Source: Candidatus Babelota bacterium
Lineage (GTDB): Bacteria > Babelota > Babeliae > Babelales > Vermiphilaceae
Assembly (NCBI GenBank): GCA_013286935.1
Contig: JABDES010000001.1
Location: 2,499 to 66,498 of the forward strand
Reading direction: 5' to 3'
DNA: 64,000 nt
Shown: piece by piece, positions 17,408 through 41,987 of the stretch
Layout of the letters: every line of letters starts with the position of its first letter
Numbering within the stretch: the stretch's first letter is position 1
Notes under the pieces: model-generated
Databases searched by the model: none
What the model was told of the DNA's origin: nothing
Seen by the model: only the letters and a program-made list of their open reading frames with translations
Position numbers and translations under genes: made by a program

Positions 17408-17553
17408 GATAGCTCTAAAACAAAATTATTGAGCTATGGTTGACTTGTGCTATCGAGCGTGTTATTACGAAAGCTATGCTGATGTTCGTTACGTTACCGT
17501 TCGGTAATTATTTGGTGATGTAACAAAATCAGTAAATAAAGGAGAAGCTTTTG

Positions 17554-19431: not shown

Positions 19432-19493
19432 GAGGTTAGTTTGAGAGTAATAATCTAATAAATTCTTCAAAAAAAGAGTTAGCGGGAGAGAGT

Positions 19494-20555: not shown

Positions 20556-20635
20556 TAAGATAATTCAAATGAAAAGATGGGCGCCATGATAATGAAGCGA
20601 TGTAGAGTAATTTTTATATATTATAAGGAGAAAAA

Positions 20636-21094
20636 ATGAAAAAAAAGCTGGTACATTATGTAACGCTATCTGTCGCTCTCATAAGCCTTATGTCGATACA
20701 GATGACAATGGCTACAGATACCGAACATAAGGCTGCAACTATTCAAAAGCAGCTGGAAGAGTCACTCGAGTCAGATGTTATAGTTTTGTCTCGAGAACAG
20801 GCAATGAAAATAATGCATGTGTTAGAATGCGTTGTAGAGACCTATCAGAAGGACGGCTCTCTGGATTTGCCAGGACAGGGAGCGCGTGCTGCCTTAAGTT
20901 GTTGTGCTCAGTTAGATGAGGTTGTCCAGTGCTTGTTGCTCATTAAATCCTCACTGGCTACTATTCAGGTAATAGATACTTCCATACTGGGTACAGTGGA
21001 AAGCTGCTGTAGCGTTATTGAAGGCCAAATAGCAACTAATCAATCTACACTTGTTTCACTTTTGCAGACAATTATTAGTTGTACATGTACCTAA
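20636..21094 (+). CDS. Exported mini-member of subfamily A (member 3, 152 aa)
   Basis: Signal peptide MKKKLVHYVTLSVALISLMSIQMTMA. N-terminal CC box LSCCAQLDEVVQCLLLIKSSL and C-terminal CC box VESCCSVIEGQI. Ends IISCTCT. Confidence 0.8.
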   Translation: MKKKLVHYVTLSVALISLMSIQMTMATDTEHKAATIQKQLEESLESDVIVLSREQAMKIMHVLECVVETYQKDGSLDLPGQGARAALSCCAQLDEVVQCLLLIKSSLATIQVIDTSILGTVESCCSVIEGQIATNQSTLVSLLQTIISCTCT

Positions 21095-21179
21095 GATTTC
21101 ATGTAAAGATAGAACACAGCAAAATTTTGAATATAAGTTTTGCTGTGTTCCCGTTGTAGTACCGTTGGTATAACAGAGG

Positions 21180-23180
21180 GTGAGAGTGAAATCAATGTTG
21201 TTTTTTTTCTGTGCTGTGTTATTGGTCTTTGTTAATTGGGCAAGCTACATAATTTGTAATAATGTGATCGAAAATAGTTGTGTATGTCAGGAGCGCAACG
21301 AAACGATTTTACTGATAGAAAGCATACAAAAAAGCATCGATGAGCTGTGCTCTCAACTTGCCTGCCTTGCACATCCCAGTTCCTGTGCGACTTGTGACGA
21401 TTTTACAAATTTTTTTATTGCTTTAGACGATCAAATTAGTGCGCTTGTCAAACTTTTGTTAGCCCAAAGCATTACGATTTGTAGTAAATTTACGACGCTT
21501 GAGCGTAGTTTATCCGAACAGGAAGAAGCGATTTGTAGACAGATCATCTCCATACAAAACCAACTTGGAATGAGCATAGATGATATTCTCACACTATTCA
21601 CCAAAACAGCAAGTCATAATAACATAAAAAGACAACACATTTTAGAAGCAATTGGAAAGCTAGGCGCTACCCTTCAGATTGAATTACAATGTGCGTTTAG
21701 TGCCCTCAGATCTGCTGTGCTTGTGCAAACTAATGGTATAAGCATATTGACTAACGATACAAAAACAGCTGTGGTAAAATCCATAGGTGAAATATCTACT
21801 CAGATAGTAAAGTTTGAACATGAAGTTATTGCTCTTATTAACATACTTTTTTCTTATATAGAGTCGGCTACTGCGAGCAATCTTTGCACGTGGTGTGCTG
21901 TATTAAAAGATGCTGGAACAACAATAACAAAAACTATTTTAGAGCAGAACGATACATTTGAATTGACAATGTCTGTCTTGCACGATGAGCTTGTTTCAAA
22001 ATTAAGTGGATTGGAAACGTTTCTGACGCAAAAAGATTCGCACTTATTGGCTCAGATTAATAAAGTAAAAGAGAGTGCGAAAACTGAGCAGTTACGGTTT
22101 GGCTCTGTGTTTGTTATGGCTAACAGTGAAATTAACAGCAGCATTCTTTCTACGTTTGGTAAAATGGATACAGATGTCGTATGTACGGTTGATAGCATTA
22201 GATTATGCTTAATTAGGTTGTGCACCGCTCTGCATACGGATTTGAATAATAATACATTGGCTTTTGCTACCAAATTAGTGGCCTGGTTGGATCAATTTTG
22301 TCTAAAGCTTTCCTGTCTGCAGTCAGCAATATGTGATGTGCTTGCTGCTCAATTTACGGCAACAGAATTGTTTGCTAGTAATAAATTGGATCGCATAAAA
22401 ATTAGAGTGGAGGAGATGCAAGATGGGGTGCAGGTGCAACAGGCTGAAGCACTTGGGAGCATTGATTGTTTAGGTGCTCTCTTAGAACAGGAAGTATGTA
22501 TAAAAATTTCAGGACTTGAAACATCGCAAGCCAAAGATACTGATCAGTTTTTACAGCAATTTGGTTATTTTCAGGCCAATTTGGTGAGTCAGCTGTGTTC
22601 AAAATTGGCCGCTATGGAGCTTGTATTGCTTGGAAAGGCTTCAGATATTATGAACAAAATTGTAAGGACGCAGGTTCAGTTAGATGAAAAAATTGATGAT
22701 ATTGCCGGACAGATAATCTCTGATACTATTGCTCGTGACGATCTTCTTTGTGCTCAGGTGCAAGCGGCTGCATTTGGATTAGAAAGTCAGTTGGTGGTAG
22801 CAATTTCAAATTTGGGCGTAGAATTAAAGAGCCAAGAACACAATCTGTGCGTTAAGGTTACACAAGAGTCTGCATCTCTCCAGCAGGAGACCAATGATAA
22901 TGTGCAAAACAGCGAAGCCGCTTTATTGTCATACAATCAAATGTTATCCACTCAGATAATGGATATGGGATCTACGGTTGACGAAGCATATGAAAACTTT
23001 CTTTCAAATATGGACGTTGTTCAAAATGAGATTATAGGAGATATAGTTGCCACAGGTGCTATTTTAGATAGTCGCCTACAGGATATTACTGCTGCGCTAG
23101 GAGCGGCTTATCTAGAATATTTGGGTGTGCTGACCACTCTGATACTTAATGTAGCAACAAATGGTAGTGCAATATTTTAA
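21180..23180 (+). CDS. Exported hendecad-repeat Cys-ladder protein, subfamily A, member 4
   Basis: Signal-like MLFFFCAVLLVFVNWASYI (GTG 21180 or ATG 21195 start). Cys box SSCATCDDF. Motifs ICSKFTTLERSL, QLCSKLAAMEL and LLCAQV...NLCVKV (the last pair 33 aa apart). Confidence 0.8.
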   Translation: MRVKSMLFFFCAVLLVFVNWASYIICNNVIENSCVCQERNETILLIESIQKSIDELCSQLACLAHPSSCATCDDFTNFFIALDDQISALVKLLLAQSITICSKFTTLERSLSEQEEAICRQIISIQNQLGMSIDDILTLFTKTASHNNIKRQHILEAIGKLGATLQIELQCAFSALRSAVLVQTNGISILTNDTKTAVVKSIGEISTQIVKFEHEVIALINILFSYIESATASNLCTWCAVLKDAGTTITKTILEQNDTFELTMSVLHDELVSKLSGLETFLTQKDSHLLAQINKVKESAKTEQLRFGSVFVMANSEINSSILSTFGKMDTDVVCTVDSIRLCLIRLCTALHTDLNNNTLAFATKLVAWLDQFCLKLSCLQSAICDVLAAQFTATELFASNKLDRIKIRVEEMQDGVQVQQAEALGSIDCLGALLEQEVCIKISGLETSQAKDTDQFLQQFGYFQANLVSQLCSKLAAMELVLLGKASDIMNKIVRTQVQLDEKIDDIAGQIISDTIARDDLLCAQVQAAAFGLESQLVVAISNLGVELKSQEHNLCVKVTQESASLQQETNDNVQNSEAALLSYNQMLSTQIMDMGSTVDEAYENFLSNMDVVQNEIIGDIVATGAILDSRLQDITAALGAAYLEYLGVLTTLILNVATNGSAIF

Positions 23181-23198
23181 ATTAGTGGAAAGGTGGAG

Positions 23199-25301
23199 AT
23201 GTCTGCTAGATTTTGCTCATTTTATGGTCTTGCCAACTGCTTGAGTATAGTAGCATTATGTATATGTATTTTGCGCGGCCAAGAGTCTGGCAAGATTTCT
23301 TCTTTTGCCAAGAACGATTTAGAACGGTTGTTAAGTGACATAGAGAACTTTGTTAAAGATAATCCGTACCTTTGTCAGTACAGAGGTGCGTTATGCAAGC
23401 AACCGAATGCTTGTTGCATAGACATTCAATTACTTAATGAGATTGATTCTTCTTTGTTTGTTATTAAGGCCAGGTTAATTGAATGCCTTTCTCAGATTAA
23501 TTTTTGTTGTGGCGGCGCTGAACAGATTATTGACGCAGAGATTGATCCTTTCTTTGCTAGAATCAACAATCTTATATGCGTATTGAATGATCTGATTATT
23601 GTGCAGCAGAGTAACACTAATTCTTTTGTAGACCAAATTAATACTGAGTTGGATGCAAATAATAATACGACCAAACAAAAACTTTATAGCCTGAATGCTG
23701 CGGTCTTGGCAAATTATGCGGCTTTGTCTGCGCAGATTACCAATGAAAAACAGTTGATTATAGAACAACAGAGGTTGCAAAAAAATGAGTTAGCCCTCGT
23801 GCAATCGAAATTAGATGTCCAAATAGTTACGGGTTGTCTTGAACTCAAAGAACAACTGTTCACTGCTATTGGCCAGATCAGTCAACAATCGATTGCATTA
23901 AACAATACTATTGTACGGGCAGATGAACAGTTAAATAGTGCATTATATGGCGCTCGGCATGCAATTACGAATGCCTTTATTAGTGGCAGTGCTCAACTGG
24001 CTGATTTGATCGAACAGCAATCTTGCGCATTTGATACCAAGATAAAAAAATTATTTGCAAAGCTTAGTGGTCAGTTGACTGGGCAAGTTTCACGTAGCGC
24101 CGTCAATAGCTCTATTCAAACAGATATGATCTGCCAAGGTATTTCAAATATAGGACGCTCACAACAGCGTCAGTCTAATGTTCTTATTCAAAAACTAGTT
24201 GATATTATAGCGCTTCTTGGAAAATTAACCGATGTTACGGTAGAACGAATTCTTGTTGCCACATCTGCTTTGACTACTCAAGTCAATGAGCAAAGTTCCC
24301 TTTTGGCCTCCACAATGTCTAATTCCATTCCCACTCTTATTACTCAATTAGTAAGTTGTCGGTCAAGTCTATACAATGCATTATGCGAGCAAGTATTGGG
24401 GCTAGAGATTCAAATGGTTGAAAGTAGTGACAAAGCCTGTGCCAAACTACAAAATTTTGAAACGGATTTTTGCCAGTTTTTTGAAATGCAAATTTCAAAG
24501 CTAAATAACAATGCTATTGTATCGATGGCAGATATCACTGGTCAACTCGCTGTTTTGGATGAATCTTTGCGCACGTATAAAACATATGTTTCCAGTCGTT
24601 TTTCTTGCGTCCAGCAGGGTGTGCAGTCGCAAATATGCCAAAAGCTTTCCAATCTTTCTACCGAAGAGCTTTTTAATAAAAATTGCATTCTTGGACAGTT
24701 AGTTAATGCAGATTTACAGATTACAGGACAGCTTTCAAATAAAATATCTACAATTTCTAAAAATTTGACCGCAGAAAATGCAGCTATCCAGGTTGGCATA
24801 AGCAATGCATTGCTGGATGTGTATAACCATTTGGGGCAAAATTTTTCTACACTCAATGGAGTGCTTGTTGCCAATAGCAATGCATTATGCGCAAAGCTGG
24901 CGGCAGCACAAACGGTTCTTGCCGGAGATCTTAATAACTCATTGGCGCAGTTATATACTGATTTGACAAATCGAAATAATATAATATCTCAAAGAATTAC
25001 GACGCTTGGTTTGGATTCTGGATTAGCAGTCAATGGTGGTCTATCTACCCTCTCTACGAGCATATTCGTCCAGAATCAAAGCCTATGTAACCAATTAGTT
25101 AATTTTTTAACAGAAGTTACGGCGGATAACAATGCTGTTATGACCAAATTATCAGGAATAGAATTGGCAATTACAACAACGTTGATCAATACAACCCAGG
25201 AGGTTGATAATGCTATTACTATGATTTATGCAGAGGTTCAGAACCTGCTATTAACGTTTGCGTATACCTATTCAGCCATACTGATTTATTTGTTGGTGTG
25301 A
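23199..25301 (+). CDS. Exported hendecad-repeat Cys-ladder protein, subfamily A, member 5
   Basis: ATG 23199 after AAAGGTGGAG. Signal-like FYGLANCLSIVALCICIL. CC box PNACCIDIQLLNEI. Clean hendecad run QLVNADLQITG/QLSNKISTISK/NLTAENAAIQV/... ALCAK to SLCNQ spacing is 66 aa. Hydrophobic C-terminus TFAYTYSAILIYLLV. Confidence 0.85.
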   Translation: MSARFCSFYGLANCLSIVALCICILRGQESGKISSFAKNDLERLLSDIENFVKDNPYLCQYRGALCKQPNACCIDIQLLNEIDSSLFVIKARLIECLSQINFCCGGAEQIIDAEIDPFFARINNLICVLNDLIIVQQSNTNSFVDQINTELDANNNTTKQKLYSLNAAVLANYAALSAQITNEKQLIIEQQRLQKNELALVQSKLDVQIVTGCLELKEQLFTAIGQISQQSIALNNTIVRADEQLNSALYGARHAITNAFISGSAQLADLIEQQSCAFDTKIKKLFAKLSGQLTGQVSRSAVNSSIQTDMICQGISNIGRSQQRQSNVLIQKLVDIIALLGKLTDVTVERILVATSALTTQVNEQSSLLASTMSNSIPTLITQLVSCRSSLYNALCEQVLGLEIQMVESSDKACAKLQNFETDFCQFFEMQISKLNNNAIVSMADITGQLAVLDESLRTYKTYVSSRFSCVQQGVQSQICQKLSNLSTEELFNKNCILGQLVNADLQITGQLSNKISTISKNLTAENAAIQVGISNALLDVYNHLGQNFSTLNGVLVANSNALCAKLAAAQTVLAGDLNNSLAQLYTDLTNRNNIISQRITTLGLDSGLAVNGGLSTLSTSIFVQNQSLCNQLVNFLTEVTADNNAVMTKLSGIELAITTTLINTTQEVDNAITMIYAEVQNLLLTFAYTYSAILIYLLV

Positions 25302-25323
25302 TGATTGACGAAAGAAGTGGACA

Positions 25324-27342
25324 ATGAACGTGAGTGGTTGGCATGCTATAGCTTTTCTAACGGTCTCTTTTATATATTGTTCAGTTTTGTCTGCTGATAC
25401 TGTTCAGACCAGAGTTGTCAATAACGGGGTACAGGGCTCAATGGAATGTATGAATACGGTAGTAGGCGTTGCATTGTACATTAAACTATTGCTTGAAGAT
25501 TTTATTGCCGTATTTGATTTATTCGAGACTACGAGTAGTCAATCCATAGGTCGCAAAGTTTTGGAGCGCTTCGCTCTTTTAAGTAGTAAGTTAAATGCCA
25601 TAGAAACTATGATCTCTAAAGAAGATGAATATTTGATTGCCCAATTCAACGCCCTTTCGATTGGCGCTGTACAGGATTACGACATGCGCACGCAACAGGT
25701 AGGCCAAGTAGGTCGCACTCTTGATGAGTCTCAGATGAGCTTTGTAGAACAACTCGCTCAATTACTGGTTGTGTCCAAAGTAATGGTTGAACAACTGTCT
25801 GTTCAGATAAACAGTTTTCAAAAAAGATTTTCTATCATATTTAACGATTGCTCTGCGGATTTATACAACACATTTGTCTACGAAAATCAACAACTTATTA
25901 CACAATACAATACCACTGCATCTCTATTGTCTGGATTTATTACAGATTTTTGTGAACATCTTTTTAATACTCAAGAAAATCTACAGGTACTTTTTAATAT
26001 TCAGGGAAATCAGATAACACGTATGCTTCATAATCAAAATGAATATGTAATAAAACTAATCAAGGAATTTGGTAGATCACTGGAGTTGCAGGCAGCTCGT
26101 CAGATTACCCTGATAGGTACCGATTTAACCGTTAATACTAATGCCATTTGCTCAAAATTATCAGGACTTGAGTTAGCATGTACACAGCAGGGCGATACAG
26201 TTTTATTAAATGAAAAGTTTATAGAGCAGGCAGAAAGTTTTTATGAGCAATCTGTAGAGCAAGCTCTTGTTCGTTATAATACACAAATTAATAGAATTAT
26301 GGTTCGTCAATTTTCACGCCTCCTGTTAGGTTTTACAGAACTTGCATCTCGATTCAACGTTGATTTATCGTTATTTGAAAACGACTTACGTGCTCGTATA
26401 GTGCAACAGCTTAGTATGAGCATGCAAACTTTAACTGGTGTTTCATCGACATTACAATCAAAGATATGTTTTATTTCTGCAGATTTGGGATGCAAGGTTC
26501 GAAAAAGTTTGTCTGATACCCGTCTTATCTTTGGAAAAACTGCATCCAAGACACTATCGCAGATAGCATTGCTCGAAGAGCATGTGCAGATATATACGGG
26601 TGATATAAAAAGACAGTTTGCCTGTGTAGATTCTCAATTACGTTCAACGGCATGCAAAAAGGTTTCTGATCTGGAATTACAGCAGGTCATGTATGCTCAA
26701 GCGATTACCGATCAGCTGGCAGCTATGTACTCAGGTATTAATCAACAGTCTAGTCTTCAATTATCCTCTTTGGAGATTGAGCTTAGCAGGCAAAATGACC
26801 AGATTTGTACACAACTTGTTAACTTTGATGCAAATCTTATAGCACTGCTTGCGCGACAATTTTCCAACGAGCAGTCATCTATTGCATCTAACAAAGCGCT
26901 TTTGTGCTCTAAAATAAATAGTATTCAGGTGAATACGCAGGCTGATATTAAAACAAAATTATCATCATTTGCTACCAATCTTGCAAAACAAGATTATTCA
27001 TTATGCGCACAGTTGGAATCTGCAGAATGCGATCTTATTGCTACTTCAACTACAGAGTTTACGAGTATCTTTGCTCAAATAGCACTAGCCAATGCTGCTT
27101 ATTGTTCAAAAATCGCTTCAATTGAAAATAATCTTGCCAGTCAAACTGACAATTTGTGTACTCAAATAATGATGTTTGATGCATCAATCATGGCCTCTAT
27201 TCAATCAGAGAGTGACTTTCTTCAGTCGCGCATAGGAGAAGTTATTACTCTGATTAATATGAATAATAATTTATTAACCGTAGCAAACCAAGTGTTTGGA
27301 GCTGTTGCAGCTGGTCAAGTTGCGTTGCCTGCTCAAGCATAA
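25324..27342 (+). CDS. Exported hendecad-repeat Cys-ladder protein, subfamily A, member 6
   Basis: Signal-like WHAIAFLTVSFIYCSVLSA. LLCSK -> SLCAQ -> AYCSK are each exactly 33 aa apart. Ends AAGQVALPAQA. Confidence 0.85.
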   Translation: MNVSGWHAIAFLTVSFIYCSVLSADTVQTRVVNNGVQGSMECMNTVVGVALYIKLLLEDFIAVFDLFETTSSQSIGRKVLERFALLSSKLNAIETMISKEDEYLIAQFNALSIGAVQDYDMRTQQVGQVGRTLDESQMSFVEQLAQLLVVSKVMVEQLSVQINSFQKRFSIIFNDCSADLYNTFVYENQQLITQYNTTASLLSGFITDFCEHLFNTQENLQVLFNIQGNQITRMLHNQNEYVIKLIKEFGRSLELQAARQITLIGTDLTVNTNAICSKLSGLELACTQQGDTVLLNEKFIEQAESFYEQSVEQALVRYNTQINRIMVRQFSRLLLGFTELASRFNVDLSLFENDLRARIVQQLSMSMQTLTGVSSTLQSKICFISADLGCKVRKSLSDTRLIFGKTASKTLSQIALLEEHVQIYTGDIKRQFACVDSQLRSTACKKVSDLELQQVMYAQAITDQLAAMYSGINQQSSLQLSSLEIELSRQNDQICTQLVNFDANLIALLARQFSNEQSSIASNKALLCSKINSIQVNTQADIKTKLSSFATNLAKQDYSLCAQLESAECDLIATSTTEFTSIFAQIALANAAYCSKIASIENNLASQTDNLCTQIMMFDASIMASIQSESDFLQSRIGEVITLINMNNNLLTVANQVFGAVAAGQVALPAQA

Positions 27343-27372
27343 TGTGGCTATGATGAAAGGGGTTGTAAAAAA

Positions 27373-29625
27373 ATGAAAAAAGCGACGATGCATGGCATAT
27401 TGATGGGCATATTTCTTGCGCTTTATTCGACCTCTTTGGTGGCTTGCGAGTCACTAAGGCTTGAGCAACTTGCTGATAAGTTGGCTTGTATAAATTCAAA
27501 ATCAGTTGAACGCGGTCACTTGAAAGAATGTTGTGAAGATCCAAGGATTTTAAATGAGATTTTTACTGATCTGTTTCGTTGTATATTTATTATCAGTAAC
27601 CGTTTAAGTTACCTAACAGAGGCAATTAGCTCTTTTGACACCTCACTGACCCAAGAGATTATTAATATTATTAATGATCAATTGCATTCTCAACTTCTTG
27701 CATGTCAAATTGATACCATTGAATCTGATCTGCGCCAGCAAGAACTTCTTATTTGTGAGCTAGTGTCTGCTTTTGATAGTCTTACTAAAATGTTAAACAC
27801 ACAATTGAGCGAATCTTTGAGTAGTTTGTCTGACGATATAGTGGTAGATGAGAGTTTAAATGACAGTGCCGTGTTAGTTTTTGCAACTCAATCTGCACAT
27901 CTTAATGATCGGGCTTTTTTTAGTGTTGAAAAGGCACAGGCAGAAACCGTTTCATTTATTGATCAATCAGAATCGTCGTTGTTAAATGTTTTTGCTACGG
28001 GTTTTAGTCAGACAGAACGGGTTATAACAGCAATTAACCAAACAGTTACAGATCAACTATCAGATGCAAAACTTTTGGTAATAAAAGCATTTGAGACGGA
28101 CAGTGCATTATTGCAGGAAATTTCACTACAAGCTGCGTTAGAGCTTAAGAATGCGCATACGGTTTCAGAAATTATATCCTCTGCTGCTATTCAGGTTGAT
28201 GCTGCACTCATAAAAGATTTTAATACTCTTTTGTCAATTGCGCAGGCCAATCAGGAACGATTATATGCTTCGATTGATAGGATAAAAAATAGTTGCTGTT
28301 GTCAAGATAGTAAGTTGAGTGATGCTTTAACTAAGAATCAATCAACTTTGGTCCAATCAACAGAGCGTCTTTTACAAGAATTGTCAAAAGACAAAAAAAC
28401 GATTATGAGTTTTTTAGGGAAGTCGGGAGATAATTTTATCGATAAGGTTAATCAATTTGGTTGCTGTGCATGTGAGCGCACAAATAAAATAGGCAAATCG
28501 CTTATTGCCGATATTGACGAACAGTATAAGCTACTGCAAGTACAGGCCTCAGAGCAGCTGTTTTGTTTAGTAGATCAGCTTTCTTGTTTACAAAAAGTAG
28601 CAATAAAAGAAACAGCAGAACAAATAGAGCTTTTACGTCCACAAATTGCTGGTACATGTACCACCATTGGTGGAAGATTGTCTCATTTGGATAAGGAAAT
28701 TTGTGCAGCAGATGCACAGGTTTTACAACAACTAAAGTGCATAGAAATGCAATTAATAGGGCAGTTATGTCTTAAATTGTCATCTCTTGAAAGCACGCGT
28801 ATTGTACAGAAAAATAGTTTGCTGATAGAGTCTTCCGACTTTCAAACTCATATTATAAACGAATTATGTTCAAAAATTTCAAGTATAGAAACTGATTTAG
28901 TAGTGCAGAATGGCATGCTCCGCTCCAGAGCCTCTTGCCTGGATACATCTATCTCGCGTGCATTGCTAGAAGGTTTTGGACAGGTTCGCTCAAGTCTGAA
29001 TGCGTTTAATGCAGCTATTTTTTCTAAAATTCTGACCTTTCAAAGTGGAGTGAGCACGACAATTGACAGTTCTGTTTCAGCGACTTTATCAGAGCTTTCA
29101 ACTCTTAATAGCTTGCTAAAGCAAAAAGTTGACCAGCTTGATTCTGGCGCGCAGTCGTCATTAAATCAGGGCTTTATTGCTTTATCGGGGCAGTTGGCTG
29201 CACGTAATGCGCTACTGTGTCAAAAAAATGCAAGTTTAGAGGCTATGGCTATTTCAGAAGTTGATTTCTTGTGTGAAAAATTCAGTAATGCTTCGTCGGA
29301 TATAAGTTTTTCTCTATTGCAGATGAGTACCACCTTATTAGAGTCAATTGCTAGTTTGGATACTGGCATAACGTTAAGTTTGCTGCTTATCAGCCAATTA
29401 AATGGCTTGGTAGATACTATGCAGCCAGGATTTTTAACCTTTAAGTATGACCCACTTGTAGGAGCAGGTTTGGTAGCGCTACTTTCAGCAGGATTTAATG
29501 CTATGGATGCTGAAGTTGCAGCAAATCCTTCGTTAGCATCGCTTCAAGCTGCGCTTTTAAATGCGGATTTTCTTGCAGCTGTAGCTATAATCACTGTTTT
29601 CTCTTTCCTTCCTCCACTCATTTAA
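27373..29625 (+). CDS. Exported hendecad-repeat Cys-ladder protein, subfamily A, member 7
   Basis: Signal peptide MKKATMHGILMGIFLALYSTSLVAC. CC box LKECCEDPRILNEI. QLCLKLSSLES -> ELCSKISSIET is 33 aa apart. Hydrophobic C-terminus AAVAIITVFSFLPPLI. Confidence 0.85.
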   Translation: MKKATMHGILMGIFLALYSTSLVACESLRLEQLADKLACINSKSVERGHLKECCEDPRILNEIFTDLFRCIFIISNRLSYLTEAISSFDTSLTQEIINIINDQLHSQLLACQIDTIESDLRQQELLICELVSAFDSLTKMLNTQLSESLSSLSDDIVVDESLNDSAVLVFATQSAHLNDRAFFSVEKAQAETVSFIDQSESSLLNVFATGFSQTERVITAINQTVTDQLSDAKLLVIKAFETDSALLQEISLQAALELKNAHTVSEIISSAAIQVDAALIKDFNTLLSIAQANQERLYASIDRIKNSCCCQDSKLSDALTKNQSTLVQSTERLLQELSKDKKTIMSFLGKSGDNFIDKVNQFGCCACERTNKIGKSLIADIDEQYKLLQVQASEQLFCLVDQLSCLQKVAIKETAEQIELLRPQIAGTCTTIGGRLSHLDKEICAADAQVLQQLKCIEMQLIGQLCLKLSSLESTRIVQKNSLLIESSDFQTHIINELCSKISSIETDLVVQNGMLRSRASCLDTSISRALLEGFGQVRSSLNAFNAAIFSKILTFQSGVSTTIDSSVSATLSELSTLNSLLKQKVDQLDSGAQSSLNQGFIALSGQLAARNALLCQKNASLEAMAISEVDFLCEKFSNASSDISFSLLQMSTTLLESIASLDTGITLSLLLISQLNGLVDTMQPGFLTFKYDPLVGAGLVALLSAGFNAMDAEVAANPSLASLQAALLNADFLAAVAIITVFSFLPPLI

Positions 29626-29640: not shown

Positions 29641-31578
29641 ATGAACATTGCTTTTATGCGCTATATACGTTTGTGTAAGATGCGTTTTGTATGCGTCTTC
29701 TTGGTTACTTGTATGCAGGCCAATGCATCCGAATATGTAGATCAATCTGAACAGATGGCATATGAGATTATTTCCCTGCTGGTTTCTATGGAAAATAATC
29801 TTGAGTATTTGTGTCAACGTATGCGTTCCTCTATCGTTTCAAAAACCGATAGGCAGGCAAATTTTGCTGTGCCAGACAACATTATCAGCTCAAATGTGTG
29901 CGATAGACTTTTTGACTTGATTGATACAATGGAAGGTTTTATTAATGACGATCAATATCAATCTACTTTGTCGTTGCATAAGGATGCTGAAAGCATTCTC
30001 AAGGTAAAAACCTATTTTGAAAATCTTTTTTTACATATGCAATCCAATTATAAAACCTATCAGATGGCTATTAATTCGAATGTAGAGCGATTTAAGGCAG
30101 CAGTTGATCATGATAGATTTTTGATGCAAGAGGCGCAGGAAAAAGTTGCCTTGTACCTAAATTCTGCGTGTTCGAGTTTACTTGATAGGGTGCGTTGTAA
30201 TGTTGTAGAAAAAATAGGTGAACTTAGTGGTGGTTTACATATAGAGGAATGTGAACTAAAAATACGTGATGAATATCAAAAAAATATCTGTATTGGCGAT
30301 AGTATGTTCGGTCTCTTTAGAGATGAAATTGATCAGATATTGAATATGTTCGAAGAAAAATTCCACAACATGATGCTTCCTGATGATACATCAATCTTTG
30401 ATGCCTTAGACAAAAAAGGTGCTACGTTGCTAGAAGAGTTGCTGTCGGACTTTGAAATAAAAAATGCGCAGTTAAGAGTCATTTTCTGCGCGCAACGTTC
30501 TACATTTTATTCTACGTTTAATGATATGTGTGAATCGATGGCCGCAATCATTAATGGTGTAGTGCAAAATCGGATTTGCTTTGATACATATTCTGTGAAC
30601 AAATCAACCAGCTGTGAAAGATGTAAAGAGCAGTGTGATGTGTTAACAGAGCAATGTGCTTGTCTTAAGCAATCAATTTTTTCTGCGCTAGAGAACTGTG
30701 TTGTGAGACAGTGCAGTTTTTATGAAGAACAAATTGTTTTTGTGCAGCAAGAAATGAAATCTGCGCTCCAAAAAAATGCCGTAGCAAAAAATACATTGTG
30801 TAATAATTTAAAAAGGCATACAGATCTTGTGTGCCAATTTTGTTCGTCAATCTGCGGTAACGTTGCTCAGTATTTTTCAACCGCCGCCGCAGAGAGCATT
30901 TACAGCAAAAACGAACTTGTGCGAAACATTGCCTTATTTCAGACTGATATAGTGGATCAAATGAAAATCGTCTCTGAAAGATTTAATTTCGATATGCATG
31001 AGTATTTGGCTGACTGTCACGACATAATTTGTGTTATTGATACCATTGTGGACAATGCGTTATCAAAGATGAGCGGTGCATTTGATAGAGCACTGTTTTC
31101 TGCTGAAAGCGATTGCTCTTTAGTCAGTGCGCTTGCAATCGACATTATGGATGAGATTACTGTGCAACAGTCTCAAACACAATGTGTAGTGGCTGCCAGA
31201 ATAAAATCTTTCACTGATCTGTTGCATGAACAGGTTACCAACGTGGCAAATGTGCAGGCTTTGGCGGCGCAACAATGTTGTAATTTATCAATGATATTTA
31301 GCGACCTATGCCAAAAGATACTCAATGTAGAATGTGCATTGGCTCAGGAAGTTGCAGTGGTCGGTAATCAGTATAATGCCCTGACTGCTACTACTGTAAA
31401 TGAAATTAAGCTGATGGAAGACAACATAAATAGCTCGATTGTCCAAGCGCTTGCAGCCTTGGGCGGTATCCTAGGTGGTCTTATTGGTCAAGCAAAGACA
31501 TTGTTGATCTCAGAAGGAGCGAATGCAGACCTGCTAGCCAAGTCTGGCAAAGGAGGCAAAAAAAGCGGTGGAGGATAA
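29641..31578 (+). CDS. Exported Cys-rich helical protein, subfamily B, member 1
   Basis: Signal-like MRFVCVFLVTCMQANA. More charged and very Cys-rich. Shared C-terminal module LCQKILNVECALAQE...SSIVQALAALGGILGGLIG, then a basic Gly-rich tail KSGKGGKKSGGG. Confidence 0.8.
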   Translation: MNIAFMRYIRLCKMRFVCVFLVTCMQANASEYVDQSEQMAYEIISLLVSMENNLEYLCQRMRSSIVSKTDRQANFAVPDNIISSNVCDRLFDLIDTMEGFINDDQYQSTLSLHKDAESILKVKTYFENLFLHMQSNYKTYQMAINSNVERFKAAVDHDRFLMQEAQEKVALYLNSACSSLLDRVRCNVVEKIGELSGGLHIEECELKIRDEYQKNICIGDSMFGLFRDEIDQILNMFEEKFHNMMLPDDTSIFDALDKKGATLLEELLSDFEIKNAQLRVIFCAQRSTFYSTFNDMCESMAAIINGVVQNRICFDTYSVNKSTSCERCKEQCDVLTEQCACLKQSIFSALENCVVRQCSFYEEQIVFVQQEMKSALQKNAVAKNTLCNNLKRHTDLVCQFCSSICGNVAQYFSTAAAESIYSKNELVRNIALFQTDIVDQMKIVSERFNFDMHEYLADCHDIICVIDTIVDNALSKMSGAFDRALFSAESDCSLVSALAIDIMDEITVQQSQTQCVVAARIKSFTDLLHEQVTNVANVQALAAQQCCNLSMIFSDLCQKILNVECALAQEVAVVGNQYNALTATTVNEIKLMEDNINSSIVQALAALGGILGGLIGQAKTLLISEGANADLLAKSGKGGKKSGGG

Positions 31579-31583
31579 TTTAG

Positions 31584-33503
31584 ATGTTTAGCCTGCTATC
31601 CAATACAATGCGTAAGTTGTTAGTTGCGTGTTGCATTATTGCGACAATCCAGGATGTTTTTGGTGGTGATGAGCAGATAGCCAATGAGATTTTTGCCAAT
31701 TCTGTTCAAATTGCTCAGTTAGCTACATTATTAAAACATAGCATTGAAAATATTGAGTCCTCTGATGTAATCAACACTGAGAATCATGTTACACAACGGC
31801 TTGCAACGTTGACGTTGCAAGCCCTCGACCAGATTGTCTTGTCTGAAAGTAAAAAGGTTCAGAAATATATTGTTTTGTATGATAAGTGTGCCAAAGGGCA
31901 GGAGCTAATGGCTCGAGAATGCAGTGATGTATACAATGCTATCTTTAACCAAGTATGCAACATAAAAAAAAGGTGTAATGAATGCATTACCCAGCAAAAT
32001 TCTATGATCTTACAATTAGAAGAATGGACAGAACATTGCTCTAAAGAGTTGGTTTCTTTTAATGCAAAGCGCTATGAGTCGTATGTTTCCGATTGCAATG
32101 TCCACTTAGGACAATTGTCTGAAGAGTTGCAGGCTATTTTGACCTCCAAAGTATCTGCTGGTCAAGATAACGGTTATGTGTCGGATGATTTTATTGGTGA
32201 TTTACGTAATGTATCCACCATGTATGACGATGTGCGGTGTTCTGTTCGCGCTATATCGCAAGACGCTATAGGTAAAATTCGCCAATGGGATAAACAGGCA
32301 GAAGATGCCTTTTTGCAGTTTTCTCAGAATAACAAGAATGCTTTAAAAGATAGATTATCAATGGATATTAATACTCATTTGAGCAAACTTTATAACGATT
32401 ATTATGAAGAATTATGCGCCAAAGAGGCTATATTTTATCAGCATAGCTCTGAAAAAATTATTACATTATTAAGTGAACTTGATATATGGATGAGTAATGA
32501 TAATTTTGATTTTATAAAAGATATTTCTTTATATTCTTATGATGATTCGATACGAATGATACCCGATACAAATGTGCTTGTAGCTGAACGCCATCGTATG
32601 CAGGATCTTATCGCTAATTTTACTAAAGAATCCTATTTTTCTAACAAAGAATTATGTGCATTCAATAGTGATGAATTTACATCACCTTATCTTGTTCGTA
32701 TAAAAAAAGCCTATGATGAGATATGTCCAATTGTAGGTCAGATAAAAGAATGCTGTAATCAATCTACTGCGCTTTTATATTTATCTATTGAGAATATGAA
32801 TTCCATTATTGAGCTAGCTTGTTCTCAGGCAAAAAATGTTCAATCGAAAGCAATCGCTGATATTGCTACAACAGCGCAAGCTGATATAAAACGGGCGTTG
32901 TCGTGTGCGTCATATGAATTGGGATCTGAATATTGTCATGTCACAGAAAAACTTAATTGTTCAGCGGCTTGTTTGTTGTCCGAGCTACAAAATGCATTTT
33001 TACGCTCAAATTTACAAAATGATACATACAATAGCCAGAACGTAGAACAGATTAAGCGAGCAAAAGATGCATTTGTTGATAGCGCTTCAATAATTGTGGG
33101 TCGTGATTTGCCATGTGTATCATCAACAATTCTTTCATTTTGTAATCAAATTACCTCTGACAATCAAGAATCAGCGGTTATTTTTAGTCAAATGCTCGAG
33201 ACTCAGGAATCTCTCTTGTGCAAAGCTCAAGCAGTATTGTGCGAAAAAATCTTTGATATTCAAAATAATATTATTAATGATATAAATATGCTGAACAATA
33301 GATTAAACTCATCAACTGAGCGTATTATTAATCAGATAAAACGTTCAGAATTTGCTATCAATCAAGATATTGCCGCAATGATGAATTCTATACGAGGTAT
33401 TATCGGGGCATTTGGTAATTATTATTTTTATATTAATAGACAAACAGAGCGCAATATAGAGTTAGCTATAATACTTTTGGTCATAAAGATTTTAACGCTA
33501 TAA
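31584..33503 (+). CDS. Exported Cys-rich helical protein, subfamily B, member 2
   Basis: Starts 5 nt after the B1 stop. Signal-like LLVACCIIATIQDVFG. C-terminal module VLCEKIFDIQNNIINDI...IAAMMNSIRGIIGAFG and hydrophobic end IELAIILLVIKILTL. Confidence 0.8.
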   Translation: MFSLLSNTMRKLLVACCIIATIQDVFGGDEQIANEIFANSVQIAQLATLLKHSIENIESSDVINTENHVTQRLATLTLQALDQIVLSESKKVQKYIVLYDKCAKGQELMARECSDVYNAIFNQVCNIKKRCNECITQQNSMILQLEEWTEHCSKELVSFNAKRYESYVSDCNVHLGQLSEELQAILTSKVSAGQDNGYVSDDFIGDLRNVSTMYDDVRCSVRAISQDAIGKIRQWDKQAEDAFLQFSQNNKNALKDRLSMDINTHLSKLYNDYYEELCAKEAIFYQHSSEKIITLLSELDIWMSNDNFDFIKDISLYSYDDSIRMIPDTNVLVAERHRMQDLIANFTKESYFSNKELCAFNSDEFTSPYLVRIKKAYDEICPIVGQIKECCNQSTALLYLSIENMNSIIELACSQAKNVQSKAIADIATTAQADIKRALSCASYELGSEYCHVTEKLNCSAACLLSELQNAFLRSNLQNDTYNSQNVEQIKRAKDAFVDSASIIVGRDLPCVSSTILSFCNQITSDNQESAVIFSQMLETQESLLCKAQAVLCEKIFDIQNNIINDINMLNNRLNSSTERIINQIKRSEFAINQDIAAMMNSIRGIIGAFGNYYFYINRQTERNIELAIILLVIKILTL

Positions 33504-33517
33504 GCAAAAGGCGGATT

Positions 33518-35467
33518 GTGTGTAATGTTACTTTTATATTGAGACTAGTTTTATATTTTGTGATTATACCTGCTGTCAATTGTTTAGAAATTGGCAATGT
33601 GTATGGAGCAGATCTTAAGATGCAAAAAGATTCATCTATCGATAGTGGTAAAAAATCTGGTAGACATCTTTCCTCCCTAGTTCTTGCAGAGATTGCGTAT
33701 CATATCGCTAAGGTTGATGCCCAGCTGCGTGATGCATTATTTTTATGTGACTCTTTGACTAATAAAGATGCAAAAAAGCCGGAAGATATATTTGACTATC
33801 AACGCACAGCAGAACATTTAGTCGCTGCCAATCAGCTTATTGAGCGATTAAATAGTATGAGCCAGTTATGCAAAGAAGAGGATGCTCATATAGATTCAAT
33901 GCAAGAGGCATCTGTTACTATTCGCTCGCTGGTTGACGATATGCAGCTTCAAATAGGCAAAGTAGATAGTAGCATTACAAAAGATCAATCTTTAATCTGT
34001 GCTGAGCATGCGCAGATTATGAAATCATTACCGTGCAAGTACTTTGTGCATCTTAATGATGACAAGTCTGAAAAGGATCAATGTTCAATGTTTACTTTGC
34101 TTAAAAATGGTCTAATGCATTCTATCGACTTGTGTAGAGCTGATGATACTTTCAACCCCTCATGCAATGTATTGAAAGAGGCCCACTGTATAGTGCCGGC
34201 ACAAAAGGAGTTTGGTAATGCATTGAGCACGGTTGCTTTAAAAGATCAATTAGATGTTTTATTAAAAACGAAAAGTGTTAATATTCTTGCCCGTGAATGT
34301 CAGCACCGGGTTCTTGACAAAATTAATGTTGTCAAACAAAAGACAATGCCGATCTCTGAAGATATTGCTGTTGTTGTAGCTCGCGCACAGGAAGAGCTGA
34401 ATAATTTTAAAATGAACATAGATGTAGCATATAACAATTTAGACAAGCGATTTCACAAATCTTTTCAAAAAATAGAACAGATTCGTTCAAGCCTTTGTAC
34501 AGCATGTTCTAAGTGTGTCAATACGGTCAAAGAGCTGATGGAAAAAGAGATAGACACCTTATCTTGCAACGCTTGCCATCAGGCTGGAATCTGTAGGGAG
34601 CAGATCAATACCGGTTGTTTGCAGCTGGAAAATGAGCTTCACGTAATCATGAATGATATGTGCTTTAATGTTTTAAGTCACAAAAAAGCGGTAGTTTCTT
34701 GTGTTAATCAATTTGACAAAAATATGAATGTTGCTGTTCAAAACGTTATAGGCAGTATGACAGAAGGTGGTTCGAGTGTTGTTAAGACAATAAGCATTGA
34801 CAAGAATGAGATTTTACGATTTCTTAGTGAGCTGTCTGTGCAATTTTATACAATGTTTTCTGGTGGATTGAATTTGGCTAAGGCTGATTTTTCCTGCAAT
34901 GTCGGATCGTTAAGCAATCTTTCTGAAAAGGTTTGCTTGAATGGAGCTGCAAATATAGGAAATGCCTTGTCAGACTTTGAAAAGCTTAGCGCGTGCAATG
35001 AAGCCTGTATCAATAATGAAATTGATAAAATACAATTTTCACTAACAGATTTTTTCAAAAATACGTTTAGTCTGCTGTCTTGCCAGATTATATCTCATTT
35101 TAACGACAGTGTTAGTCAGATAAGACAGCAGCTTGCAGATGAAAACACAGCTATCCAACAGTCTGTTGTAGCGTGCTGCATACCAAGTTTAACTGATGCA
35201 CTTTGTATAAAACTGTTGGGTGTACAAAAAGAGATGGCGGTTGCTATAAACCAATTAGAGATTCAGATTGCCAACAATGAGCAGCTTATTATTAACGAAA
35301 TTATTGCAACGCAAGATGACATTGCCACTTCGCTTGCAAATATGATGGCCGCTATTACGGGTATATTTGGAGCTTTTGCTGCATTAACGTTTTCTATCGT
35401 TTCAGCCATTTTTGTTAATGAACAGTCATTTATAGAATTGATTATTACCCTAGGACTAGGGATTTGA
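33518..35467 (+). CDS. Exported Cys-rich helical protein, subfamily B, member 3
   Basis: GTG start. Signal-like FILRLVLYFVIIPAVNC. C-terminal module LCIKLLGVQKEMAVAINQLE...LANMMAAITGIFGAFAALTFSIVSAIF. Confidence 0.8.
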   Translation: MCNVTFILRLVLYFVIIPAVNCLEIGNVYGADLKMQKDSSIDSGKKSGRHLSSLVLAEIAYHIAKVDAQLRDALFLCDSLTNKDAKKPEDIFDYQRTAEHLVAANQLIERLNSMSQLCKEEDAHIDSMQEASVTIRSLVDDMQLQIGKVDSSITKDQSLICAEHAQIMKSLPCKYFVHLNDDKSEKDQCSMFTLLKNGLMHSIDLCRADDTFNPSCNVLKEAHCIVPAQKEFGNALSTVALKDQLDVLLKTKSVNILARECQHRVLDKINVVKQKTMPISEDIAVVVARAQEELNNFKMNIDVAYNNLDKRFHKSFQKIEQIRSSLCTACSKCVNTVKELMEKEIDTLSCNACHQAGICREQINTGCLQLENELHVIMNDMCFNVLSHKKAVVSCVNQFDKNMNVAVQNVIGSMTEGGSSVVKTISIDKNEILRFLSELSVQFYTMFSGGLNLAKADFSCNVGSLSNLSEKVCLNGAANIGNALSDFEKLSACNEACINNEIDKIQFSLTDFFKNTFSLLSCQIISHFNDSVSQIRQQLADENTAIQQSVVACCIPSLTDALCIKLLGVQKEMAVAINQLEIQIANNEQLIINEIIATQDDIATSLANMMAAITGIFGAFAALTFSIVSAIFVNEQSFIELIITLGLGI

Positions 35468-35494
35468 CATAGTTGTGCGTTTTATTGCCAAGGG

Positions 35495-37426
35495 ATGGAA
35501 ATGACAGCTGCTCTTAGACCAATATTAGGTGTTACCAGTTCATTGTTGTTATTGCACATCATCTATGCATCAGATGTTTATGATTTTCGTCTTATAGAAC
35601 CGCTGGCGCATCTTCTGGGGGCCAACCAAGACGTCAGCCAAACAACCGATGTTATTGATATTCTTGTTGACCCTGTTGTGTTCTATGAAACGAATACAGA
35701 CTCTCTATTGATTGAGTCTGAAGTGGATTACCTTGTCAGAAAGGTAGGTATCGACAGTGTATTATTGTCAAAGCGGCTTGATATGGCTATCGATCTTCAC
35801 AATACGGTTATTGCTTGTCAAGAAAAAATGCACAATGATGCTTGCGCTGCGCAGCATTCAATTACGAGCTTGTGCCAATCGTGCGTAGAACAACTCGATG
35901 TGCGAATGCCTAGTCATTTAGAGGTGCTTGATACGAACGGTGGTGTGTACGATATTAACGATGCCATATTAGGTATAGAATCTGGACTAGCCGCCTTGGA
36001 GTGTATGCTCGATAAAGCAGTTACTATATTTGTCCAACATAGCGTACAAGATACCAAAAAGCGTCTTGATCAAGCTGACAACGTTATTACTAGATTGCAA
36101 GAACAGCTGTGTGATCAGAGCCAAGATTTTGCACAAGAATGCAGTTCGCTCAAGGATGAGATAAACCATCAAGCAGAGCTTGCTGCTCAACATATTCAAA
36201 CCAATAAAAGTAATGCATATAAACAGATAGACGATGCTCTAAGGGCAGTTGAGGATGATAGAGGTGCAGCGATAACAGATGAGACTGCCTTAAAACATGC
36301 CCGTGCAATAGCTACTGTTAATAGTCACAATCAATCGGCGATTGTTGTACTCGAACAGGCGATTCACGAATCTGAAAAGGTGGTACAAAAAAAGGCGAAC
36401 GCATTATTACAACATTGTTCTGATGCTCAGAAAAAAATGCTGCAGTTTGACACTTTTTATAATGCTGAGCGTGATGCTCATGCTTTATTTCACGAGCAAG
36501 TCGAATCTTGTATGAGTGAATTTATTTGTCAGATACCGCTATTCTGTCAGGGGTGGAGTAAGTCATGTGATACATCACAGGAGCATCTTCAAGCGGAAAG
36601 TGAGCACATAATAAAAAGATGGTGTGATACATTGTCAAAAATCCCGTGGAAACAATGTGACTGCCGTATGGTGGCAGAGTGGGTAGAAAAATCGGCTGCA
36701 ATATTTGATAATTTTTTGTCTGGCATGGCATCAAATTTAAAGATTCATACGGTAGAATCAAAAAATGAGCTTAATCGGCAGCTAGGTCCGATGTTAGTCC
36801 TCTTGTCCGAGGTTATTCGTACTGGTTATGCACAGTTAGGCATTGATTTGACTGAACGTCAGGAGCAGCTTGGTGCTAATACTCAGCAACTTGCAGATTC
36901 GATAGCCAATGATACTGCTGCTTGGGCAGATTCATTTTCGGAAAATGTTGTATCGAATCACAATGCATTTGTTATGGCCTTAGAAGACTCTATGTCTGAT
37001 ATAAAACAAACGATTCAGGATACCTTTTTGTCGTTGCAATCTTTAGTGAGCTGTACATTAAAAGCATGTTCGCAGGAATTATCAGGCACGCAATCGGCGC
37101 AAGATGCCTCGGCGCAGATGGCAATTCAAAAGCAATTATGTCAGATCAGCGTGTTTGGTAACGTGTTGTGCGAGAAAATTTTCAATTTGCAAAACAATAT
37201 ACTATTTGCCTTCAACGAAAATCTAAAGTTGGCCTATCGAAATGAAGCGGCAATAGTAAATCAACTTATAGCATCCACCGACCAAATAAATCTTCTTATA
37301 GCTGCGATGGTTAGTGCGGTACAGAGCGATTTAGGTGGGGTGTCTGGCTTTATTGAGCAGGCAATAAAAAATTCAGAAAAAACAACAACAATTCTCGATG
37401 TTATTGTTATTTTAAGTATGTTGTAA
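35495..37426 (+). CDS. Exported Cys-rich helical protein, subfamily B, member 4
   Basis: Signal-like ILGVTSSLLLLHIIYA. C-terminal module VLCEKIFNLQNNILFAF...LIAAMVSAVQSDLGGVSGFI and hydrophobic end ILDVIVILSML. Confidence 0.8.
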   Translation: MEMTAALRPILGVTSSLLLLHIIYASDVYDFRLIEPLAHLLGANQDVSQTTDVIDILVDPVVFYETNTDSLLIESEVDYLVRKVGIDSVLLSKRLDMAIDLHNTVIACQEKMHNDACAAQHSITSLCQSCVEQLDVRMPSHLEVLDTNGGVYDINDAILGIESGLAALECMLDKAVTIFVQHSVQDTKKRLDQADNVITRLQEQLCDQSQDFAQECSSLKDEINHQAELAAQHIQTNKSNAYKQIDDALRAVEDDRGAAITDETALKHARAIATVNSHNQSAIVVLEQAIHESEKVVQKKANALLQHCSDAQKKMLQFDTFYNAERDAHALFHEQVESCMSEFICQIPLFCQGWSKSCDTSQEHLQAESEHIIKRWCDTLSKIPWKQCDCRMVAEWVEKSAAIFDNFLSGMASNLKIHTVESKNELNRQLGPMLVLLSEVIRTGYAQLGIDLTERQEQLGANTQQLADSIANDTAAWADSFSENVVSNHNAFVMALEDSMSDIKQTIQDTFLSLQSLVSCTLKACSQELSGTQSAQDASAQMAIQKQLCQISVFGNVLCEKIFNLQNNILFAFNENLKLAYRNEAAIVNQLIASTDQINLLIAAMVSAVQSDLGGVSGFIEQAIKNSEKTTTILDVIVILSML

Positions 37427-37485: not shown

Positions 37486-37992
37486 TCAAAGCCTGTCGCC
37501 ATTGCATGCCAAAATAGTATTAAATACTAAAAAAGTACCTGAAAAAAGAGTGGCCATTGTCATTCCCGTCCTGATAATTACACGTGTAGTCGCGTTTTCA
37601 TAAGCTTTGCGCACAATATCTAGTGGATTAATTATTGCGGGTTGTTTATCAACAAGAGCTTTTTCCTCATCGCCCATCTGCACAGACTCATCGTTTTGAC
37701 GAACTATTTTCTCCCAGGTATCGGCGGTAATTGTGGAAGGAAGTGCCATAAAATAATCAAGTAAAGGATAAACATTCACAAGTAATTGAGTTTTTTCAGG
37801 GTCTTTATCTGGCAGCAAAAGAACTTCTTCTAATTTTTTTTTGTTCGCCCACGAGATGGCGGTAAATGTTAAAAAGCTGACTCCACCCAGGACTGAGGCA
37901 GGAATTGGGGATGTCGATGTCCAATAGGACCAATCACAAGAAAAGGTAGTACTTGATATGCAAAATAATAACAGCAACACACTAGGCTTCAT
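37486..37992 (-). CDS. Hypothetical membrane protein (signal peptide plus internal and C-terminal hydrophobic segments)
   Basis: Leader MKPSVLLLLFCISSTTFSC. Hydrophobic segments VLGGVSFLTFTAISW and MTMATLFSGTFLVFNTILAC. No recognisable domain. Confidence 0.55.
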   Translation of the reverse strand: MKPSVLLLLFCISSTTFSCDWSYWTSTSPIPASVLGGVSFLTFTAISWANKKKLEEVLLLPDKDPEKTQLLVNVYPLLDYFMALPSTITADTWEKIVRQNDESVQMGDEEKALVDKQPAIINPLDIVRKAYENATTRVIIRTGMTMATLFSGTFLVFNTILACNGDRL

Positions 37993-38163
37993 GAATATTC
38001 CTTACAAAATTATATAATTTTAACTGGTGTTGGAAAATGATATACCATAATTTTTCATGCAGAGCTAGCTAGGATGCGGGGCGAATTTAGGATCGTCTAT
38101 TGCATTTTTATACCTTTTTTATAACATGTAACAGTTTTATATTGTTCAATACAAAAGGAGAGT

Positions 38164-38547: not shown

Positions 38548-38566
38548 TTTGTTTGGTTGAATGACC

Positions 38567-41927: not shown

Positions 41928-41987
41928 ATACTCTCTTTTTTAATTAAAGTTGCCAAGCACGTAAAATAAGTTAGAACTCCTCATTAT

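Follow-up and report, generated by a model that had tools for sequence, protein, structure and literature searches.

What do four adjacent genes for exported, cysteine-bearing helical proteins build together, and what does the segment shared by their C-termini contribute to it? The genes in question, here called B1-B4, occupy positions 29641-37426 of a 64,000-nucleotide stretch of DNA (hereafter the window) from Candidatus Babelota bacterium (assembly GCA_013286935.1, contig JABDES010000001.1, positions 2,499 to 66,498 of the forward strand). Our comparisons indicate that B1-B4 are old paralogues, none of them redundant with the others, within a lineage-specific family of Sec-exported, all-alpha proteins in a Dependentiae (TM6, Babeliales) bacterium. 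Their conserved C-terminal domain may bring the subunits of an exported, hetero-oligomeric coiled-coil structure into register and cross-link them by disulfides, a reading that we favor tentatively and rate at slightly below an even chance.

A conserved C-terminal domain in B1-B4

B1-B4 close an array of eleven co-directional open reading frames (ORFs; A0, A0b, A0c, A1-A4 and B1-B4) that follows sodA (16787-17407), with internal gaps of 5-85 bp. The initial annotation described B1-B4 as genes of about 640 amino acids (aa) separated by 5-27 bp, in agreement with the lengths listed below and with the gaps of 5 bp (B1/B2), 14 bp (B2/B3) and 27 bp (B3/B4); a further gap of 15 bp precedes B1. The long ORFs of the array are mostly preceded by Shine-Dalgarno (SD)-like sequences. 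ORF length, these SD-like sequences and the presence of orthologues in two other organisms establish that the array ORFs are real genes. All 15 full-length N-termini of the family contain K/R followed by an uncharged hydrophobic stretch of 8-20 residues, as in export signals. The four B genes are:

29641..31578, + strand: B1, 645 aa, signal peptide, all-alpha, 31 Cys; C-terminal end KSGKGGKKSGGG, lacking a hydrophobic tail
31584..33503, + strand: B2, 639 aa, signal peptide; short hydrophobic tail LAIILLVIKILTL, present in both orthologues
33518..35467, + strand: B3, 649 aa, signal peptide; uncharged run of transmembrane (TM) length (25 aa, residues 609-633), the sole member with such a run
35495..37426, + strand: B4, 643 aa, signal peptide; tail ILDVIVILSML

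BLASTP comparison among B1-B4 found similarity confined to the C-terminal 60-215 aa. Smith-Waterman alignment of the last 90 aa gave z = 4.9-14.4 for all six B pairs, with none of 500 shuffles reaching the real score, whereas a control segment (residues 200-290 of B1-B4) gave z values of at most 1.5. The shared C-terminal module proposed by the initial annotation is thus real, and the C-terminal strings quoted for it are all present in B1-B4. What has to be revised is its extent, since the conserved domain measures about 222 aa rather than about 90, the module first noticed being its best-conserved part.

The limits of the domain were taken from a nine-member alignment of B1-B4 and five orthologues. 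The motif L-C-x-K is invariant in all nine members and lies 79-92 aa from the C-terminus, and a K-N-[EDSV] landmark is found 134-136 residues upstream of the LCxK Cys in eight of the nine. Because the distances from landmark to LCxK and from LCxK to the end are near-constant, the domain is almost free of indels, and its length is conserved in this way across paralogues and orthologues alike. In comparisons between orthologues, the bin of residues 551-600, which holds LCxK, is the best-conserved stretch for B1, B2 and B3. A second Cys, at -10 from the LCxK Cys, occurs in eight of nine members; it occupies the equivalent site one hendecad (11-residue repeat) earlier and faces the same side of the helix. 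One or two further Cys are found 33-42 residues upstream of LCxK. The domains, from the KNE landmark of B1 or its equivalent to the end, and the invariant motifs are located as follows:

30907..31575, + strand: B1 C-terminal rod domain, KNE landmark to end, 223 aa
31306..31317, + strand: B1 L-C-x-K (LCQK), invariant motif
32832..33500, + strand: B2 C-terminal rod domain, 223 aa
33237..33248, + strand: B2 L-C-x-K (LCEK), invariant motif
34802..35464, + strand: B3 C-terminal rod domain, 221 aa
35201..35212, + strand: B3 L-C-x-K (LCIK), invariant motif
36761..37423, + strand: B4 C-terminal rod domain, 221 aa
37166..37177, + strand: B4 L-C-x-K (LCEK), invariant motif

The B proteins had also been described as charged and very Cys-rich. 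Their D+E+K+R content is indeed higher (20.7-22.1% vs 13.6-18.8% for the A proteins) and their Q+S+T content lower (18-21% vs 23-30%), whereas the Cys richness holds in part only: Cys makes up 3.0-4.8% of B1-B4 and 2.4-3.6% of the long A proteins, and B4 (3.0%) is not enriched. Clusters of the CxxC/CxxxC type were observed at B1 residues 325-341 and 398-405 and at B3 residues 327-333 and 350-353 (CERCKEQC, CQFCSSIC, CTACSKC, CNAC). The CTAC of B3 is kept in the B3 orthologue, and these clusters could be intrahelical disulfides or metal sites.

The domain as a hendecad rod segment of the A type

Counted from the L of LCxK, hydrophobic residues of the domain stand at 0, 4, 7, 11, 15, 18 and 22, and Fourier power peaks at 3.667 residues, not at 3.5. 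The 3.667 peak exceeds the 99% shuffle level in B2, B3, A0, A1, A2 and A3; in B1 and B4 the signal is local and lies in the C-terminal halves. AlphaFold2 (all structure predictions here are of monomers) folded the last 150 aa of B2 into a single uninterrupted amphipathic helix spanning residues 2-134 (about 133 residues), followed by a short terminal helix, with a mean predicted local distance difference test score (pLDDT) of 82.5 and values of 92-95 over the LCxK region. In the low-confidence model of full-length B4, a helix covering 421-531 begins at the KN landmark, and another, covering 538-626, begins just before the Cys pair. Fourier signal, core positions and predicted long helix thus agree with a hendecad coiled coil, for which an 11/3 (3.67-residue) periodicity and long helices are expected. 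A Foldseek search with the C-terminal model returned no matches, which is uninformative for one helix.

This periodicity connects the B domain with the seven genes that stand in front of B1:

17551..29625, + strand: seven A genes (A0, A0b, A0c, A1-A4), signal peptides, Q/S/T-rich hendecad rods; 5' of B1 and co-directional

In the A proteins, a [L]C-x-K[IL] motif recurs at spacings of 33, 66, 51 (=33+18), 84 (=33+51) and 18 residues, and hhalign placed the 33-residue A unit in register with the B LCxK (E 1.5e-4, probability 51%). That test is partly circular because the units were chosen by the motif. A non-circular test with a hidden Markov model (HMM) built from the B domain only scored A0 at 59.7 bits, A3 at 27.3, A2 at 21.1 and both A1 and the A4 orthologue of a second organism (Y_A4, see below) at 15.5 bits, the matches being co-linear with the C-terminal rods of the A proteins. 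Among the controls, 200 shuffles per A protein gave 5 bits or less, and reversed A0-A4 and Y_A4 were negative. Because the B-domain HMM scores A proteins far above these shuffled and reversed controls, A and B belong to one superfamily, and the C-terminal module of the B proteins is evidently a hendecad rod segment of the A type. The initial annotation, which denied the B proteins the hendecad rod, was therefore wrong for their C-terminal third.

Orthologues, gene order and distribution

Relatives of the B proteins are few. A word-indexed search of 5.8 billion proteins found no relative of B2, word-indexed protein searches with B2, A0 and a 7-sequence B profile returned either the query proteins themselves or nothing, and a scan of GTDB genomes with B2 found nothing. 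When 1.84 billion representative proteins were searched exhaustively by HMM with a profile of the B C-termini, only three clusters came up besides B1-B4 themselves. These comprise a full-length B4 orthologue (P0005/P0008; 25% identity for P0005 over 509 aa, E 5e-40), a full-length B3 orthologue (P0006; 26% identity over 612 aa, E 1e-51) and a B2-like protein (P0007), which is a B2 orthologue. Two more ORFs came from contigs, namely a B2 orthologue at L076 3-1787 (32% identity over 281 aa) and a B1 orthologue at L079 2002-3963 (23% identity over 360 aa).

The orthologues are one-to-one and stand in the same order in two other organisms. Organism X (L076, L077 and L078) carries B2-B3-B4 followed by the same four tetratricopeptide repeat (TPR) genes and hflX as in the window, and organism Y (L079) carries A4-B1-B2, an order that strengthens the suggestion of the initial annotation that A and B proteins belong to one structure. 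The sequences of organism X stem from JGI 3300020965 and 3300020902 and from Logan SRR8433346, those of organism Y from Logan SRR21360854. Orthologous B proteins are only 20-32% identical (25-32% between the window and organism X), whereas the flanking TPR genes are 58-66% and HflX 75% identical. Because orthology and order are kept while B identity falls far below that of the neighbors, the paralogues must be old; each has been retained one-to-one, and all evolve fast. The eight full-length B proteins span only 635-655 aa, and we saw no sign of recent duplication or gene conversion among the B genes.

Beyond these organisms, neither members of the family nor look-alikes occur among the six-frame ORFs of 74 other Dependentiae loci (glmS-ctp-sodA region). 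Metagenomes scanned with the A4 pair and with the TPR pair gave nothing beyond the contig already known, and a viral-contig scan with the B3 pair gave nothing. In the literature we found nothing on cysteine-rich or coiled-coil proteins of this sort in Dependentiae, including work by cryo-electron tomography.

Comparison with known families and systems

With Pfam and NCBIfam models, no A or B protein gave more than sub-threshold coiled-coil noise. PF01442 (Apolipoprotein) matched A0 at 34.8 bits (E 1.7e-8), below its cutoff of 90, and P0006 faintly, whereas B1-B4 gave no match. PF04513 (Baculovirus polyhedron envelope protein C-terminus, Baculo_PEP_C) scored 27.9 bits for A0b, 22.1 for A0 and 13.2 for B3, all short of the threshold of 38. 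Against PDB, the B profile matched ApoA-IV and ApoE chains at E of about 3e-3 to 7e-3 and chains of heptad repeat 1 (HR1) of the coronavirus spike S2, the best whole-chain E being 4e-6 for a construct with two HR1 copies. The HR1 match covers profile positions 362-426 (around B4 residues 360-430), outside the C-terminal module; the two share a Q/N/S/A-rich helical segment, and we rejected the match as compositional, single stretches having independent E-values (i-E) of 0.02-0.04. The matches to Apolipoprotein, Baculo_PEP_C, ApoA-IV and HR1 are most likely effects of coiled-coil composition. Judged by these searches, A and B constitute a previously unannotated superfamily lacking a Pfam, NCBIfam or PDB relative. 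The B family is new, yet broadly familiar in kind, being a family of secreted coiled-coil proteins.

Hendecad (11/3) coiled coils are known, e.g., from tetrabrachion (the right-handed coiled coil, RHCC) and from the stalks of trimeric autotransporter adhesins. Like these, the array proteins combine 3.67 periodicity with very long unbroken helices in exported or surface-associated rods; unlike them, they have Cys at fixed repeat positions and show no sequence or Pfam kinship, no beta-barrel anchor and no S-layer protease partner. The chlamydial cysteine-rich outer membrane complex (OmcA, OmcB, MOMP) is alike by analogy only, in that an obligate intracellular bacterium exports Cys-bearing envelope proteins for which disulfide cross-linking outside the host is conceivable. 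OmcA, OmcB and MOMP are not alpha-helical coiled coils, no homology to them was detected, and cross-linking in the array is presumed.

Alternative functions of the B proteins and their C-termini

The module had been thought to be a membrane-anchoring, sorting or oligomerization signal, and of these three the last agrees with the 3.67 periodicity, the one long helix and the conserved length. Were it instead an anchor or a sorting signal, the tail would span or insert into a membrane or be cleaved by a sortase-, exosortase- or rhombosortase-like enzyme. Such signals share with the B tails a non-polar C-terminal stretch on exported proteins that is common to paralogues: B3 has its 25-residue uncharged run (KD19 2.16), B1 has the glycine-zipper-like ALAALGGILGGLIG, B2 and its two orthologues have a very hydrophobic extreme C-terminus (KD11 2.7-3.2), and the ends of A1-A4 are also non-polar. 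TM-length segments are not conserved, however. An uncharged run of 18 residues or more is present only in B3, the run of its orthologue X_B3 being 12 residues long; the tails of B2 and B4 contain 8-13 hydrophobic residues interrupted by K, D or E, with an uncharged run of 8-10 residues in B2 and of 10 in B4, the latter sited 34 residues from the end. B1, Y_B1 and X_B4 have no hydrophobic end at all and finish in Lys/Gly, polar residues and poly-Gly, respectively. The GxxGxFG-type Gly-rich element highlighted by the initial annotation is not conserved either, degenerating in orthologues to hydrophobic-hydrophobic-x-[AG]-hydrophobic. The last 60 residues of the nine B proteins contain no LPXTG, PEP-CTERM or GlyGly-CTERM motif, no NCBIfam sorting-domain model matched at E <= 1, and in no B protein is a hydrophobic helix followed by clustered basic residues, the Lys-rich end of B1 not being preceded by a TM segment. 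Those window ORFs that we scanned include no sortase-, exosortase- or rhombosortase-like gene. Conservation is strongest at residues of the amphipathic rod (LCxK, Q, N) rather than at the tail. Tail-anchored proteins have a C-terminal TM segment of about 20 residues and no signal peptide; since all N-termini of the family look like Sec signal peptides, classical tail-anchoring is excluded. Membrane anchoring by the C-terminal tail is thus not supported, and we consider an anchoring or sorting role as a whole improbable. Two related ideas were set aside. The first was that ctp (14851-16350) processes the non-polar tails; because gyrB, S9, ctp and sodA recur near glmS in many Dependentiae that have no array, its adjacency is not specific and represents inherited synteny. 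The second was a tail resembling a eukaryotic glycosylphosphatidylinositol (GPI) signal (small residues, spacer, short hydrophobic end), as a bacterial Sec substrate has no route into the lumen of the host endoplasmic reticulum.

B1-B4 might also act independently of one another, as fast-evolving proteins exposed on or delivered to the host (adhesins, coat antigens or effectors), with a C-terminus that is either an inherited scaffold or an element for secretion or host-membrane targeting. The bacterium is of an obligate intracellular type with genes for ankyrin and TPR proteins nearby, the 20-32% identity of the B proteins compares with 58-75% for their neighbors, and the B proteins carry signal peptides and are orphans among 1.84 billion proteins. 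Yet their strict one-to-one orthology, order and lengths are kept in three organisms, which is unusual for variable antigen or effector families, and their many Cys are ill-suited to the reducing host cytosol, so that we hold this explanation to be unlikely, though the most probable of the alternatives. It appears highly improbable that the B proteins form a multi-component alpha-helical pore like the tripartite ClyA-family toxins, with the Gly/Ala-rich stretch inserting into host vacuole membranes. They are paralogous, all-helical, of low mutual identity and encoded with signal peptides in an operon-like array, and B1 and B3 have glycine-zipper-like segments; but there is no Pfam match to HBL, ClyA or any other toxin family and no PDB sequence match to ClyA/HBL-type toxins (the fold comparison being uninformative), the hydrophobic Gly-rich segment is not kept in orthologues and is placed by AlphaFold2 inside a continuous helix, and at about 640 aa the B proteins differ from the subunits of known tripartite toxins, which have about 350-450 aa. 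The notion that the 11/3 amphipathic helices bind lipid surfaces in the manner of apolipoproteins, perilipins and synuclein, and are not coiled coils, strikes us as the least probable of all. The 3.67 periodicity and the 33-residue repeats do resemble the 11- and 33-residue periodicity of apolipoproteins A1/A4/E and perilipin-type repeats, and the sub-threshold match of A0 to PF01442, the faint one of P0006 and the PDB matches to ApoA-IV and ApoE point the same way. The array proteins differ in belonging to a bacterium and in having Cys ladders, signal peptides and a narrow hydrophobic stripe that occupies 3 of 11 positions, as is typical of coiled-coil cores; none of B1-B4 matches PF01442, and the fixed Cys positions and conserved length point to protein-protein packing.

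A proposed hetero-oligomeric assembly outside the cytoplasm

In the assembly reading that we favor, the C-terminal domain of about 222 aa would bring the subunits together in register, and the B subunits would form a hetero-oligomeric helical bundle that becomes locked by disulfides once outside the cytoplasm. Each subunit would owe a role of its own to its divergent N-terminal ~400 residues, and the short non-polar extreme C-terminus would be an accessory, either packed into the bundle or dipping into a membrane. The product might be a multi-subunit envelope or cell-surface structure, such as a coat, a fiber or a periplasm-spanning strut, and the conserved one-to-one paralogues are suggestive of a dedicated multi-subunit extracytoplasmic structure of this sort. 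A wider version, in which all eleven genes would specify a disulfide-laddered hetero-oligomeric hendecad apparatus (exoskeleton, outer-membrane strut or host-attachment fiber) with B1-B4 as a four-subunit bundle and the A proteins as the shaft, is a doubtful extension that we think quite unlikely to be right in full.

Several points weigh against the assembly reading. The B2 orthologue Y_B2 lacks the upstream Cys partners, and only about one third of the Cys residues are kept between orthologues. The full-length AlphaFold2 model of B4 is all-helical but unreliable, its pLDDT of 46 being too low for its fold to be compared. Only about three organisms have the family, and 74 other Dependentiae genomes lack it in the region next to sodA; because it is so restricted, it cannot be a phylum-wide envelope solution. 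Fast divergence also fits independently acting, host-exposed proteins. Finally, oligomerization, interchain disulfides, the stoichiometry of a hetero-oligomer and the cellular location are steps that we infer.

Genomic surroundings of the array

The GlmS of the window is 52-68% identical to GlmS from metagenome-assembled genomes of Babeliales/Dependentiae (TM6) and about 40% identical to that of other phyla, and the GyrB, SRP54, YidC, ankyrin and TPR genes of the window are in keeping with a bacterium that is small and intracellular. Sample numbers resemble those of soil mini-metagenomes from Harvard Forest ("Barre Woods"), a reported source of TM6 genomes (PMC7065516), so the material may be connected with that site. 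Positions 1334-4900 hold three ankyrin-repeat proteins of the kind typical for amoeba-associated intracellular bacteria. In scans for promoters and terminators, promoter-like sites turned up about as often as in shuffled sequence, and nothing usable emerged from the intergenic stretches.

Within the A genes, the signal peptide of A4 (27373-27450) ends in LVAC followed by E, a canonical lipobox, and A4 may be a lipoprotein; its sole orthologue is truncated at the N-terminus. A0b (19494-20555) consists in part of near-perfect tandem 37-residue repeats (SDLSALExSLIxAFDSGLxSVESSLAxDINSCCxSIT), in which most CC doublets succeed one another at intervals of 37 residues (Cys 168/169, 205/206, 242/243 and 279/280). 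A 125-aa ORF at 19964-20341, antisense to A0b, is a probable repeat artefact.

Three small genes at 37486-39496 separate B4 from the TPR block; their products are a membrane-like protein (168 aa), a protein bearing a signal peptide (127 aa) and a NUDIX-domain protein (309 aa). Organism X has none of them at that position, and they thus look like a lineage-specific insertion. The TPR block itself (39828-46865, - strand), which adjoins the B genes in organism X too (58-66% identity), codes for four paralogous TPR proteins of 699, 463, 546 and 606 aa with signal-peptide-like N-termini. Three of the four have weak, sub-threshold matches to Glyco_transf_9 (heptosyltransferase) in their C-terminal half, and the first also carries DUF6165; that the block might glycosylate the S/T-rich A and B proteins is pure speculation. 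Farther along the window (48144-51983, - strand) are three tandem orphan paralogues of 424, 426 and 432 aa that closely resemble one another in their N-terminal regions, where PQECDSEP follows a signal peptide. One of them has a weak Ulp1/C48 peptidase match (E 0.0016), and the trio may be effector-like.

Implications for Dependentiae

Dependentiae live inside protists and are widespread, yet almost none of them has been cultivated, and to our knowledge their envelope and host-contact machinery is essentially uncharacterized. All four known outer-membrane tethering systems are reportedly missing from them (bioRxiv 10.1101/2021.05.31.446380), and this lends appeal to an envelope role for the array proteins. 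The locus defines a superfamily with clear structural rules, i.e., hendecads, a 33-residue Cys register and fixed domain lengths. If the assembly reading does not hold, B1-B4 would be one more lineage-specific family of fast-evolving secreted proteins. If it does hold, they would represent a new way to build a covalently stabilized coiled-coil envelope or surface assembly, and would be a candidate for how one Dependentiae lineage stabilizes or arms its envelope.

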